A stretch of 43,529 nt of DNA, from NCBI GenBank assembly GCA_013360215.1, contig JABWCP010000031.1:1-43529 (forward strand), given 5' to 3'. Origin of the DNA: a bacterium (lineage in GTDB: Bacteria; CLD3; SB21). The notes beneath the pieces were generated by a model. That model was not told the origin of the DNA. It searched no databases and saw nothing but the letters and a program-made list of their open reading frames with translations. Numbering within the stretch: position 1 is the first letter of the stretch; each line of letters opens with the position of its first letter. The position numbers and the translations under genes are program-made. Below are positions 28,336-43,529 of this stretch, piece by piece.

Positions 28336-29544
28336 ATGTTTAAAAAATTTATAAAATATTTTAGTTTAGTTACTTTTGGAATAGTACTTTCGGTAGTCAC
28401 TCTCGAATTGCTAGTGCGCCTTGCCGGGGCGAAGCCGCAGACTTACCTTCGTAAATTTTCCCGTTATCATACAATACTGGGGTGGGAAAAAACACCGTTA
28501 ACCGAGGGAAAATTTCGCAAAGGTGACGTTATAATTCATGAAAAAATTAATAGCCGAGGGTTACGCGATTCAGAGTACACTTATGAGAAACCTTCAAACA
28601 CTTTTCGAATTCTTGTTCTCGGTGATTCATTCACCGAAGGTTATGATGTTGAAATCAATGACCTATTTACTGAAATTCTTGAATCAAAACTAAACACTTC
28701 AAGTTTTGATTCATCTTCAATTAGATATGAAGTAATCAATGCAGGAACTGGCGGATATTCAACGGATCAGGAGTTCCTGTATTTCGAAATTGAAGGTATC
28801 AAGTATAAACCGGATATGGTTTTACTCATGGTTTATCCAGCAAACGACATTTTTTACAATCATAAAAGTAAGTACGGGAACTATAATAAACCGTTTTTTC
28901 AAATTAGGAATGATTCACTCATATTAACAAATACTCCGTTACAGGAACCATACCGTCAAGAATCCATTAAAAATCTTTTTAGAGAAATGGCCCTGTATCC
29001 GATCGTTACTCAAATCATTTTGACAAAATACCCTCGAATTTCACAAACATTGTCGCATTTTGGATTTATTTCTGAATCAACACTGGCTGCTACCGCCGCT
29101 AATTTAAACTCTATTTCAGATTCTTCAGCATCATCATTTTCGGTATATAAAAAATATAATAATTTTTTTATGAATACCGCTTGGCAGAAAACTTCGCGCA
29201 TTATTTATGAATTAAATAAGAAATCAAAAGAAATCGGCACGCGATTGGTTATGTTTTATATTCCGGATCGTATTGAAGTTTATGACTCCGATTGGAAAAA
29301 AACCAAAGAAAAATTCTCCCTTGAAGATCATGAATGGAGTCCCGATGTCCCATCGACAATGCTTAAAAAAATTTCAGACACATCCAATATACCTTTACTT
29401 GATTTTCGGCAATATATCTCAAAAAAAGAGTTAGGCGATTCTGTTTTATATAACGGAATACATTGGAATGTATCGGGCAATCGTTTTGCGGCAGAATTCA
29501 TATACGAGGCATTATTTCATGAGAAAGCGACTGTAAAACAATAA
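28336..29544 (+). CDS. Membrane-anchored SGNH/GDSL hydrolase-fold protein (AlgX/AlgJ/DltD-like acyltransferase candidate)
   Basis: N-terminal TM; LVLGDSFTEG (block I), NAGTGGYST (II), YPAND (III), NGIHWN (V). Confidence 0.85.
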   Translation: MFKKFIKYFSLVTFGIVLSVVTLELLVRLAGAKPQTYLRKFSRYHTILGWEKTPLTEGKFRKGDVIIHEKINSRGLRDSEYTYEKPSNTFRILVLGDSFTEGYDVEINDLFTEILESKLNTSSFDSSSIRYEVINAGTGGYSTDQEFLYFEIEGIKYKPDMVLLMVYPANDIFYNHKSKYGNYNKPFFQIRNDSLILTNTPLQEPYRQESIKNLFREMALYPIVTQIILTKYPRISQTLSHFGFISESTLAATAANLNSISDSSASSFSVYKKYNNFFMNTAWQKTSRIIYELNKKSKEIGTRLVMFYIPDRIEVYDSDWKKTKEKFSLEDHEWSPDVPSTMLKKISDTSNIPLLDFRQYISKKELGDSVLYNGIHWNVSGNRFAAEFIYEALFHEKATVKQ

Positions 29545-29545
29545 T

Positions 29546-30703
29546 ATGCGTATAGGTATTTGCGCTTTAGGCGCTGTTTCACAAGACACAGGCGGACAGA
29601 CCTATTTAAAAAATTTCGCAAAAACGCTCGGCGAAATCAAAACTAATAATGAGTTCGTTTGGTTTTTTTCTAAAGGCGAATCAAAAGTTATTGAATTTCC
29701 AGACAATACTTCAACTAATGTGGTAGTTGAATTACCACTTTCCGCGAGAACTGTTCAACGGTTAGTATGCGAACACATTTTGTTGCCATTGTTTTCCGAT
29801 CATCATCGAGTAGATGTTATGTTTTTTCCTAACAATTACGCATCTATTTTCTACCGAAAGCCTTTTGTCTTGGCAATACGAAGTATGTTGATATACAACA
29901 CAAAATCACACGGCGTAAATCTCATACGCTCATTTTACCGATCTATAATAGCTCCTTTAAGTGCTAAGAAGGCCGCAATCATAATTACCCCTTCTTATCA
30001 TACTAAACTTGAAATCATTAAACACCTCAACATATCAGATAATAACATAGAGGTAATTTCACACGGCATAGACATTCAACTTTTTGGCAGTGAAAAAAAC
30101 TCTGACGCCGCAGATACGCTATGGAAAAAATGGAATATAAAACCTCCTTTTATCCTATATGTTTCAGCTTTATGGAGTTATAAGAACCATGACAAACTGA
30201 TCTTAGCATTTGATAAATACCGAAAATCAAAGAAAACCGATTTCCAACTAGTTTTAATTGGCAAGGGAGCCAGTAGTTTTGAAAGCTACGGAAAATATCT
30301 CAAAGATTTAATAACTGACCTCAAACTATCTGAAGTTGTACGATTCATTGATTTTTTACCGCATCAGGATTTGAAGCATTTTTATCAGTGGGCTAGTGTT
30401 TACGCATTCCCTTCTCAGACAGAAAGTTTTGGAAATTCGATATACGAAGCAATGGCTGCTGGAGCGCCGATCATATGTTCTAATACGCATGGATATGAAA
30501 CAAAAGTAAAAGAAGCCGTCCTATCCGTAAACCCACATGATATAAATTGTTTTGCAGACGCTATTAATGCGGTGATAAACAATAAAAATCTAAGGGCTAA
30601 CTTAATAAAGAACGGTAAAATACAAGCCAATAATATGTCATGGGACAATTGCATCAGAAATACTGTATTAATTATTGAGAAAGCAAATTATGAAAAAAAT
30701 TGA
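29546..30703 (+). CDS. Glycosyltransferase family 4
   Basis: [36 protein letters not shown]. Confidence 0.88.
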
Positions 30704-42111: not shown

Positions 42112-42120
42112 GACTAAGCA

Positions 42121-43529
42121 ATGAACATTCTCGGCATATCCTGTTTTTATCATGATTCGGCGGCCGCCTTGGTACGCGACGGAAAGATCATCGCCGCTGC
42201 ACAAGAAGAGCGTTTTACTCGAAAAAAACACGATGATAATTTTCCAAAACACGCCGTGGAATTTTGTCTTAAAACAGCCGGTATTGATATGTCGCAAATT
42301 GACGTCGTCGCGTTTTATGAAAAACCGCTCGTCAAATTTGAACGATTGCTTCGTACTTATTTTGCTTATGCGCCGATAGGATTCAATTCGTTTATCAAGG
42401 CCATGCCGCAGTGGATCAGAAAAAAACTCTGGATGCAGGAGCTTCTGCTGGAGGAGTTACCGGGCTTTAAAGGAAAAATCATATATCCGGAACATCACGA
42501 ATCGCACGCTGCAGCGGCTTTTTTCCCGTCTCCGTTTCAAGATGCCGCCTTTTTGACGATCGATGGTGTCGGTGAATGGACTACGACCAGTTTTGGAACC
42601 GGGCGCGGGAATAAAATACAAATAGACTACGAAATTCATTTCCCGCATTCACTCGGTCTCTTGTATTCCGCATTTACGTATTATACGGGATTTAAAGTTA
42701 ATTCAGGCGAATACAAAGTCATGGGTCTTGCTCCGTACGGCGAACCCAAATACGTCGATCTGATCTACAAACATCTGATTGACCTCAAAGAAGACGGGTC
42801 GTTTCGGATGAATATGGACTATTTTGATTTCGCCGCAGGCCTCACAATGACCAATGCTAAATTTGACGCAATCTTCGGCGGACCGCCGCGTAAACCGGAA
42901 AGCCGCCTGGGGCAACGTGAAATGGATCTAGCCAAGTCCGTGCAAGTGGTCACCGAAGAAATAATGATGCGTATGTCCAAACATGTACGGAAAATCACCG
43001 GTCAAAAAAATCTCTGTTTGGCCGGCGGGGTGGCGCTCAATTGCGTGGCCAACGGCAAACTTCTCAAAGAACGTGTTTTTGAAAATGTATGGATACAACC
43101 GGCCGCAGGCGACGCAGGCAGCGCATTGGGTGCCGCACTTTTCGGTTGGTATCAATATGCCAACAACCCGCGCAACGCCGATAATAAAAATGATACACAG
43201 TTTGCTTCGTACCTCGGTCCTGATTTTACGGACGCCGAAATTGAAGCCTATTTAATATCCCACGATATCCCTTACAAAAAACACGATCGCTCTGCTATGG
43301 TACAATCCGTCGCCGGCATCCTAGCCGACGAAAAGGTCGTGGGTTGGTTTCAAAACCGTATGGAATTCGGCCCGCGTGCATTGGGCTCACGCAGTATCAT
43401 CGGCGACGCCCGTTCTACGAAAATGCAATCCGTAATGAACCTGAAGATCAAATACCGCGAATCATTCCGCCCGTTTGCGCCGAGCGTTTTGCGTGAAAAA
43501 ATGACGGATTATTTTGACGTGGATTACGA
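42121..43529 (+). CDS. O-carbamoyltransferase, NodU/SxtI-like (3' end beyond window)
   Basis: Not in ORF track (no stop). Manual translation MNILGISCFYHDSAAAL...AAQEERFTRKKHD...EHHESHA...DGVGE...GEYKVMGLAPYG...GGVALNCVANG...MEFGPRALGSRS...YRESFRPFAP. Confidence 0.95.
   Translation, partial: MNILGISCFYHDSAAALVRDGKIIAAAQEERFTRKKHDDNFPKHAVEFCLKTAGIDMSQIDVVAFYEKPLVKFERLLRTYFAYAPIGFNSFIKAMPQWIRKKLWMQELLLEELPGFKGKIIYPEHHESHAAAAFFPSPFQDAAFLTIDGVGEWTTTSFGTGRGNKIQIDYEIHFPHSLGLLYSAFTYYTGFKVNSGEYKVMGLAPYGEPKYVDLIYKHLIDLKEDGSFRMNMDYFDFAAGLTMTNAKFDAIFGGPPRKPESRLGQREMDLAKSVQVVTEEIMMRMSKHVRKITGQKNLCLAGGVALNCVANGKLLKERVFENVWIQPAAGDAGSALGAALFGWYQYANNPRNADNKNDTQFASYLGPDFTDAEIEAYLISHDIPYKKHDRSAMVQSVAGILADEKVVGWFQNRMEFGPRALGSRSIIGDARSTKMQSVMNLKIKYRESFRPFAPSVLREKMTDYFDVDY

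Follow-up and report, generated by a model that had tools for sequence, protein, structure and literature searches.

A set of four protein families, comprising a NodU/TobZ-type carbamoyltransferase, a small SxtJ-like membrane protein, a tyrosine-tailed microprotein of the DUF5989 family and a membrane-anchored SGNH/GDSL protein, was found in the bacterial genome that contains contig JABWCP010000031.1 (assembly GCA_013360215.1). The stretch of DNA analysed, hereafter the window, is 43,529 nucleotides long and is the entire contig (C56; contigs, genomes and loci are cited below by C, G and L numbers); its source, a Bacteroidota-like genome from sludge, comprises 3.72 Mb in 56 contigs, with a completeness rating of 100%. 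An original prediction, made from the letters of the window alone, had proposed that a carbamoyl group is passed from the transferases to the microprotein, then to the SGNH protein and onto an exported glycan, with no MBOAT protein involved. The four families recur together across phyla, are conserved and have neither an MBOAT nor an AT3 partner in the module. A four-part carbamoyl relay, similar to DltX/DltD and PatA/PatB and operating without an MBOAT, is our best reading of this gene set, and one to which we give about an even chance.

Genes of the module

The genes on which the argument rests are as follows.

28336..29544, plus strand: SGNH/GDSL protein, 402 residues (Lipase_GDSL, 27.1 bits, cut-off 23.6).
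31435..31602, plus strand: DUF5989 microprotein, 55 residues (PF19451, 72.9 bits, cut-off 27, E value 2.2e-20).
36978..38702, plus strand: carbamoyltransferase CT1, 574 residues, NodU/TobZ-type (both Pfam halves, 138.3 and 189.9 bits).
42121..43527, plus strand: carbamoyltransferase CT2, cut by the contig end (Carbam_trans_N, 345.3 bits; Carbam_trans_C positions 2-69).
C53:1-375: remainder of CT2 (Carbam_trans_C positions 87-170).
C53:388-822: SxtJ-like protein, 144 residues, the next gene after CT2 (PF19588, 30.8 bits, cut-off 24.4).

The SGNH protein, the tyrosine microprotein and the two carbamoyltransferases that the original prediction had read from the window are all present by Pfam match and by sequence, and its suggestion that an SxtJ-like gene be sought past position 43529 is borne out by the gene on C53.

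The DUF5989 gene occupies the gap between the stop codon of a GT2 gene and asnB, the probable start of which is the ATG at 31610, and is present in a single copy by profile search of all contigs. The N-terminal part of the microprotein is basic and amphipathic; a single hydrophobic stretch of 21 residues and a tail of 10–13 residues that bears no charge come after it, and the C-terminus reads APFIYTLF directly before the stop codon, the tyrosine being Tyr52. An F[IV]Y[TS]LF ending is found in 120 of 121 members of the family; net charge at the N-terminus averages +3.5, and 120/121 tails likewise contain no charged residue. When 25 sequences were aligned, a KLWW-x-IP stretch and the whole APF-Y-TLF end were invariant, and the entire microprotein, membrane span included, is 50–90% identical across phyla. 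Relatives number 760 in a large protein collection, and all 30 of the cyanobacterial copies found with a hidden Markov model (HMM) end in APFIYTLF. By the positive-inside rule, DUF5989 is predicted to be a tail-anchored protein with its N-terminus inside and its C-terminus outside.

The tail sequence FIYTLF fits the FxYxxF acyl shuttle motif at the extreme C-terminus. As set out in sections of PMC12148441, the tyrosine of this motif bears D-alanine in DltX or acetyl in PatA, and the group then passes to an SGNH partner. Among the MBOATs of DUF5989-bearing genomes, 18 of the 22 examined also have an F[ILV]Yxx[F] ending. The original description of the microprotein as DltX-like holds at the level of the terminal motif, and DUF5989 is found without an MBOAT. 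A DUF5989 profile run against all solved-structure sequences gave no match at E ≤10. A search for longer or fused forms gave only five proteins (99–144 residues), which match PF19451 alone and are probably over-called starts. Apparent DUF5989 fusions in the lists of open reading frames were rejected, being frames that stay open in GC-rich DNA and contain an internal start. Four small cyanobacterial genomes (G199, G319, G341 and G343) contain DUF5989 at about 40 bits and no SxtJ match; these low-scoring forms may be a divergent subtype.

Both carbamoyltransferases have the Kae1-like N-terminal and YrdC-like C-terminal halves of their family (PF02543 and PF16861), those of CT2 being split over C56 and C53. 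Genome-wide, Carbam_trans_C is matched at only three places: in CT1, in the truncated CT2 and at the start of C53 (bases 1-375). The ends of C56 and C53 have no overlapping bases, and the two contigs are placed next to each other because the CT2 gene is split across both. Compared with DUF5989-adjacent transferases of other phyla, CT2 has a median identity of 54% and a maximum of 72%, against about 29% for CT1; CT1 and CT2 are 29% identical to each other, and an orthologue of CT1 (74.5% identity) is found in the relative locus L030. On sequence grounds, we take CT2 and the SxtJ-like protein to be a cognate pair, with CT2 as the only transferase here of the DUF5989-linked branch. CT1 probably stands outside the relay and performs conventional cytoplasmic carbamoylation. 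Of the two transferases first put forward as relay donors, CT2 is therefore retained and CT1 is not. Among solved proteins, the DUF5989-linked branch is closest to GdmN, TobZ and the carbamoyltransferase of novobiocin synthesis, all matched over full length with E values from 4e-91 to 2e-78.

The SxtJ-like gene scored 0.95 in an Atlas feature search, in which 30 of 30 matches were SxtJ clusters. An alignment of 29 family members has no invariant position, but a conserved Arg opens hydrophobic segment three, and both an S-Y-W stretch and a C-terminus of the form E-x-Q-F/W are conserved. PF19588 is named after SxtJ, and UniRef calls some PF19451 proteins SxtK. The genes that follow on C53 (829-3343) are unrelated and encode TatC, a thioredoxin and an ATPase of the ArsA/Get3 type. 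In other organisms, the insertion of tail-anchored proteins is carried out by Get3-type ATPases; the presence of such a gene near SxtJ, together with the tail-anchored layout of DUF5989, may be coincidence.

In addition to Lipase_GDSL, the SGNH protein matches Lipase_GDSL_2 at 30.0 bits (below the cut-off of 32.9) and, weakly, ALGX. It has an N-terminal hydrophobic anchor ahead of block I (Kyte–Doolittle value 2.27 over a 19-residue window), and a strongly hydrophobic segment precedes block I in 27 of 27 DUF5989-linked SGNH proteins, usually with more positive charge ahead of the segment than behind it. The block I serine, block III Asn/Asp and block V His of the SGNH superfamily are present: in the alignment of these 27 sequences, G96, S98 and D171 do not vary, and H376 is near-invariant. 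The best solved matches of the family profile are a GDSL lipolytic protein and, second, CgnD (E value 2.5e-14, most of the length), with AlgJ and AlgX matching the C-terminal half at an E value of about 1e-10. The family occurs at four places in the 3.72-Mb genome, the window copy and three more. One of these, on C43 (L004:195-1415), is an anchored 406-residue paralogue with a family E value of 1e-31; it has no DUF5989 beside it and is followed by a multi-span membrane protein.

Occurrence of the module across genomes

For the survey of gene neighbourhoods, one genome was taken per species, giving 520 confirmed DUF5989 relatives, from which the best 80 loci, covering many phyla, were used. Partners were counted by six-frame HMM search within 5 kb of DUF5989, and the 45 loci that extend 5 kb or more in both directions were treated as full loci. 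These 80 loci cannot serve as proof of motif conservation because the scan used two conserved peptides as patterns. The counts were as follows.

Carbamoyltransferase: 66/80 loci; 43/45 full loci; same strand 66/66.
SxtJ: 67/80 loci; 42/45 full loci; same strand 67/67.
SGNH family: 38/80 loci; 23/45 full loci; same strand 30/38.
All three partners: 33/80 loci; 22/45 full loci.

Loci in which no transferase was counted are mostly cut near the microprotein gene, and in five of five such genomes tested a transferase is encoded at another place or lies concealed within the locus. An iterated SGNH profile left the SGNH count unchanged. With four SGNH places per 3.72 Mb, about 0.9 neighbours would be expected in 80 windows of 10 kb; by this rough arithmetic, the 38 seen represent an enrichment of about 40-fold, and the grouping of the module genes is far beyond chance. 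Once overlapping frames were excluded, no other family was present in more than 10 of the 80 loci, and those that did recur are sugar-nucleotide enzymes. The three largest clusters of apparent new partners proved to be shadow frames over the transferase gene and disappeared with the same exclusion. The module families span many bacterial phyla, including candidate-phyla bacteria, and one record is archaeal by its source's naming.

In an even draw of 301 cyanobacterial genomes, DUF5989 exceeded its cut-off in 48 and SxtJ in 44; both were present in 44 genomes, DUF5989 alone in four and SxtJ alone in none. The gene order in cyanobacterial loci is transferase-SxtJ-DUF5989-SGNH. When 30 such loci were viewed with 1.5 kb on each side of DUF5989, SxtJ was directly upstream in 29, the transferase upstream in 23 and the SGNH gene directly downstream in 17. 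L226 (genome G192), which has the strongest SxtJ match of the cyanobacterial loci, was considered as a possible saxitoxin cluster and rejected, as its four module genes lie among housekeeping genes. Its SGNH member is invisible to Pfam at 1e-5, yet was assigned with 99% probability by the family profile; the SGNH counts are therefore lower bounds.

Eight loci with all four genes at full length were used to compare conservation, as the median pairwise identity over 28 pairs.

Transferase: 53%.
Microprotein: 50%.
SxtJ: 27%.
SGNH: 25%.

A donor side that stays constant while the acceptor end varies is in keeping with a relay used on differing acceptors.

Two DUF5989 genes, every one beside its own SGNH gene, are present in both L017 (7625-12725) and L082 (7050-10156); one full-length transferase gene was detected in each of these loci, and SxtJ in L017 only. 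In L015, an amino-acid-kinase family protein (1413-2387) directly follows DUF5989. This family includes carbamate kinase, and the protein could be a local source of carbamoyl phosphate.

MBOAT and AT3 proteins

A profile search of the whole genome, rated 100% complete, found no MBOAT (PF03062), so that the absence first noted for the window extends to the entire genome. Its sole AT3 acyltransferase is on contig C42, with none in the window. Elsewhere, the search covered the genomes of 50 of the 80 loci, and no MBOAT match was obtained in 34 of these 50 DUF5989 genomes, mostly metagenome bins of which the completeness is not established, and none appeared among the 80 neighbour proteins that were scanned with Pfam (of 161 unlabelled, from the 80 loci). 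By coordinates, an MBOAT lies inside the DUF5989 locus in just one of the 50 genomes.

That single case is L080 (the same locus as L095), in which an MBOAT system stands beside a complete transferase-SxtJ-DUF5989-SGNH cassette. The MBOAT, which is short (a 379-residue frame, about 13600-14300), looks separate and self-contained because it has its own fused FIYFDF tail, similar to that of DUF5989, and adjoining extra SGNH genes. In L030, the closest relative of the window, an MBOAT is found about 17.8 kb away. The original prediction had contrasted its relay with ordinary acetylation, in which an MBOAT would consistently accompany DUF5989, and had suggested comparing co-occurrence with NodU and SGNH against that with MBOAT. 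The counts of 66/80 for the transferase and 38/80 for SGNH, against 1/50 for an MBOAT in the locus, show no such consistent accompaniment.

PFIY-tailed peptides beside viral carbamoyltransferases

An alignment query retrieved 80 viral loci in which a transferase is 30–35% identical to the CT2 branch; a query of viral contigs with a single transferase had given no match. In 44 of these 80, a short open reading frame ends in PF[IVLM]Y with at most one further residue, typically as RKRDPFIYK, a count obtained by pattern match without a shuffle control. The peptides are short, basic, soluble and clearly interrelated, and 30 of the 44 reading frames share the strand of the transferase frame and are no more than 100 bp from it. 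Neither SxtJ nor a membrane-type DUF5989 was found at any of the 80 viral loci; SGNH proteins of the DUF5989-linked family were present at only five, and GDSL was assigned to one of 31 flanking proteins. DUF6071 proteins were seen just upstream of the peptide-transferase pair in L206 (3400-4032) and L217 (3149-3877).

From this distribution, the PFIY tail appears to go with the transferase itself, and SxtJ only with the membrane-spanning form of the peptide. Confinement of SxtJ to that form fits a role in letting a membrane-held tail reach the transferase.

Proposed relay and alternative explanations

We infer the scheme that follows, including every chemical step, the topology, the use of SxtJ as a conduit and the identity of the acceptor. 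In the cytoplasm, CT2 would convert carbamoyl phosphate and ATP to carbamoyl-adenylate, a chemistry established for TobZ. Two partners would hold the enzyme at the membrane, namely the SxtJ-like protein with its four helices and DUF5989 through its amphipathic, basic N-terminal part, and the carbamoyl group would be loaded onto the invariant Tyr52 in the uncharged tail. At the outer face, the tail would pass the carbamoyl on to the signal-anchored SGNH protein, at Ser98, and the SGNH protein would place it on a hydroxyl of the exported Wzy-type polysaccharide. This relay is favoured because it explains the terminal tyrosine motif, the anchored SGNH protein, the strict linkage of transferase and SxtJ, and the split in conservation between donor and acceptor sides. 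As a whole, the original interpretation survives as a conserved, MBOAT-independent module of four families across phyla; it is weakened in that SGNH is seen at fewer than half of the loci and that one of the two transferases is of the partner type.

A more specific version, which we hold only tentatively and consider rather doubtful as a whole, treats PFIY-tailed micropeptides in general as covalent carriers of carbamoyl-tyrosine, soluble in phages and membrane-spanning in cells as DUF5989/SxtK. SxtJ would then be a conduit that replaces the MBOAT, and the tail would alternate between the inner transferase and the outer SGNH protein. The 13-residue uncharged tail could span the bilayer along a groove of SxtJ, or could flip.

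Several observations weigh against the relay. Carbamoyl-serine enzymes usually turn over slowly, as is seen with carbamate inhibitors. SGNH, found near DUF5989 in only 38 of 80 loci, is no obligate neighbour. The soluble phage peptides imply that tail and transferase meet in the cytoplasm, and a tail predicted to face outward then presents a geometric problem for which there is no demonstrated solution; the 29 SxtJ sequences contain no invariant polar or catalytic-looking residue. The likeness to DltX appears to be at the level of the motif only, with no demonstrated common descent: a Pfam scan of the microprotein at E ≤10 returned DUF5989, UPF0014 and Wzz and no DltX family, and hhalign aligned the DUF5989 tail with MBOAT tails over nine columns at a probability of 45% (E value 2e-4). 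For the window SGNH protein, the charge around the anchor is ambiguous (+3 ahead, +4 behind), and block V reads NG[IV]HW here and in the two closest relatives, as opposed to D-x-H in most others; lacking the block V Asp, the window protein may possibly use a Ser-His dyad. GdmN, the novobiocin enzyme and TobZ modify their final acceptors directly, free of any carrier. According to sections of PMC8670742, the phage 5-hydroxymethylcytosine carbamoyltransferase functions alone in vitro, and a carrier is therefore no chemical necessity for this family.

The main rival draws on several of these points. Here, SxtJ and DUF5989 would form a membrane-tethered holoenzyme with CT2, anchoring or activating it at the inner face, where a lipid-linked glycan or other membrane-bound acceptor would be carbamoylated directly; the PFIY tail would be a non-covalent subunit, comparable to the MbtH-like partners of adenylating enzymes, and the SGNH protein a separate esterase or editing enzyme. 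It is favoured by the near-obligate grouping of transferase, SxtJ and DUF5989 (66/80 and 67/80), with SGNH present in only half of the loci, by the direct action of the solved relatives and of the phage enzyme (PMC8670742, in the sections cited above), by the soluble phage peptides that stand beside the transferase with hardly any SGNH (5/80) or GDSL (1/31) proteins, and by the lack of a catalytic-looking invariant residue in SxtJ. However, it leaves unexplained why an invariant tyrosine should sit in an FxYxxF tail at the extreme C-terminus, and why the charge distribution should put this tail across the membrane from the transferase. The roughly 40-fold excess of SGNH adjacency, the duplicated DUF5989-SGNH pairs and the anchors in 27/27 SGNH proteins are also left without explanation. 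We regard the tethered holoenzyme as possible but unlikely.

An improbable alternative is that the microprotein is itself the substrate of a peptide pathway like that of crocagin, its tail being carbamoylated and then trimmed or released by an SGNH-type enzyme. The rank of CgnD as second-best solved match to the SGNH profile, over most of its length, speaks for this, as does the crocagin pathway, which has the carbamoyltransferase CgnI and a core tyrosine in CgnA (sections of PMC10070186). Against it, the whole microprotein is strongly conserved across phyla, span included, the genes occur in sugar-cluster or housekeeping contexts with no other peptide-maturation genes, and the SGNH protein is membrane-anchored. 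Least probable is a scheme in which the cargo of DUF5989 and the SGNH protein is acetyl or a different acyl group, taken from some other donor, and the carbamoyltransferases act in a cytoplasmic step of their own. In its favour, every proven FxYxxF shuttle has an acyl cargo (sections of PMC12148441) and a hexapeptide acyltransferase gene is present in the cluster. Against it, the genome has no MBOAT and the window no AT3, no neighbour of DUF5989 is as constant as the transferase (43/45 full loci), which is always on the DUF5989 strand, and the PFIY tail accompanies the transferase even in phages.

If the carbamoyl relay is correct, the acyl-tyrosine shuttle of the Dlt and Pat systems would be extended to a carbamoyl group derived from an adenylate, with a new membrane partner, and an activated group would cross the membrane without an MBOAT or AT3 protein. 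Three families that have no function assigned would gain one through the relay: DUF5989/SxtK, SxtJ and the anchored SGNH proteins, themselves a large family. Were the carrier and the SxtJ conduit also to hold, surface glycans would be carbamoylated outside the cytoplasm and, by extension, the last step attributed to SxtI/J/K would also take place there, with SxtL as the true final transferase. A carbamoyl group on a surface sugar alters its charge and may alter recognition by phages or the immune system, and the site and route of its addition matter for envelope biology.

The surrounding surface-polysaccharide cluster

The module genes of the window belong to, or directly follow, a Wzy-type surface-polysaccharide cluster that is part of one long plus-strand run to the contig end. 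Its other features are listed below.

16220..42111, plus strand: Wzy-type surface-polysaccharide cluster.
Within 16220..42111, plus strand: glycosyltransferases, GT4 and GT2.
Within 16220..42111, plus strand: methyltransferase and RmlA-like nucleotidyltransferase.
Within 16220..42111, plus strand: hexapeptide acyltransferase and DegT aminotransferase.
Within 16220..42111, plus strand: AsnB, WecG/TagA, PF00953 initiating transferase and Wzi-like protein.
Within 16220..42111, plus strand: two Wzy_C-like membrane proteins.

The three membrane proteins of the window without a family assignment gave only weak Wzy_C matches or none, with no MBOAT or AT3 match among them. The acceptor glycan of the proposed relay is likely to be supplied by this cluster. 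GC content is 0.34-0.39 at 18-32 kb of the window and 0.44-0.48 on either side; the low-GC part contains the SGNH and DUF5989 genes, and CT2 is in a higher-GC part. This step suggests a swapped, serotype-specific block in the cluster.

Shortly downstream of DUF5989, positions 33542-35779 encode a fused zinc alcohol dehydrogenase and GFO/IDH/MocA oxidoreductase of 745 residues. The fused gene is also found downstream of DUF5989 in the two closest relatives of the window (L010:10894-12465 and L030:10900-13140). Many activated-sludge DNA runs contain the window stretch. Contigs from RNA libraries cover it in small pieces only, so that uncovered parts are uninformative; one of them (31541-31833) bridges the 3' end of DUF5989 into asnB and gives a weak hint of DUF5989 transcription, DNA carry-over being possible.

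Comparison with known systems

The literature searched contained no description of this system, no mention of DUF5989 and no paper that joins an acyl shuttle with a carbamoyltransferase. The nearest counterpart of the microprotein is DltX, as described in sections of PMC12148441: both are membrane microproteins of about 50 residues with FxYxxF at a C-terminus that is extracellular in DltX and predicted to be so in DUF5989, and both have a membrane-anchored SGNH-type partner, which acts outside the cytoplasm in Dlt and is proposed to do so here. The Dlt donor, like that proposed here, becomes an adenylate in the cytoplasm. Unlike Dlt, the module lacks both the MBOAT (DltB) and a carrier protein (DltC), and the group proposed to be transferred is carbamoyl rather than D-alanyl. 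Its membrane partner belongs to SxtJ, a small family unrelated to DltB, and similarity in sequence was seen at the motif only. In PatA/PatB, AlgI/AlgJ/AlgX and other MBOAT-SGNH acetylation pairs, as proposed for the module, a C-terminal F[ILV]YxxF tail delivers its cargo to the serine of an SGNH protein. Those pairs use acetyl-CoA as donor and have the tail fused to the MBOAT, whereas DUF5989 is a free-standing microprotein with no MBOAT. The parallel originally drawn with PatA/PatC/PatB had to be dropped in that form, as sections of PMC12148441 describe no PatC microprotein and show the motif fused to PatA.

In gene content, the module matches the saxitoxin set sxtI-sxtJ-sxtK-sxtL, with which the common cyanobacterial cassette shares both families and order (carbamoyltransferase, SxtJ, small open reading frame, GDSL). 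The earlier proposal of a family set common to the saxitoxin cluster is borne out by this order and by the use of the name SxtK in UniRef. The saxitoxin acceptor is a small alkaloid and not a glycan, and the comparison with the sxt genes was made by description. In the sections consulted of saxitoxin papers and reviews, sxtJ and sxtK are uncharacterised or are said to act in conjunction with SxtI, and sxtL is a GDSL lipase next in order. The relay would offer a reason why SxtJ and SxtK accompany SxtI, which is left unexplained in those sections of papers from 2009-2010 through 2025-2026.

Among carbamoylating enzymes, TobZ, GdmN and the novobiocin O-carbamoyltransferase are full-length homologues of the DUF5989-linked branch; they are soluble and act directly on small molecules, with no reported microprotein or membrane partner. 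The crocagin pathway, according to sections of PMC10070186, combines the carbamoyltransferase CgnI, the SGNH-type hydrolase CgnD and the precursor CgnA with its core tyrosine. Like the module, it brings together a carbamoyltransferase, a tyrosine-containing peptide and an SGNH-fold enzyme, which in crocagin formation has a peptide as its substrate. It differs in being soluble and in making a natural product, for which the peptide is the end product and not a carrier. The viral pair, finally, shares with the cellular module a transferase of the same kind (30–35% identity) and a short basic peptide ending in DPFIY(K); it differs in having no membrane span, no SxtJ (0/80) and only rarely an SGNH protein of this family (5/80).

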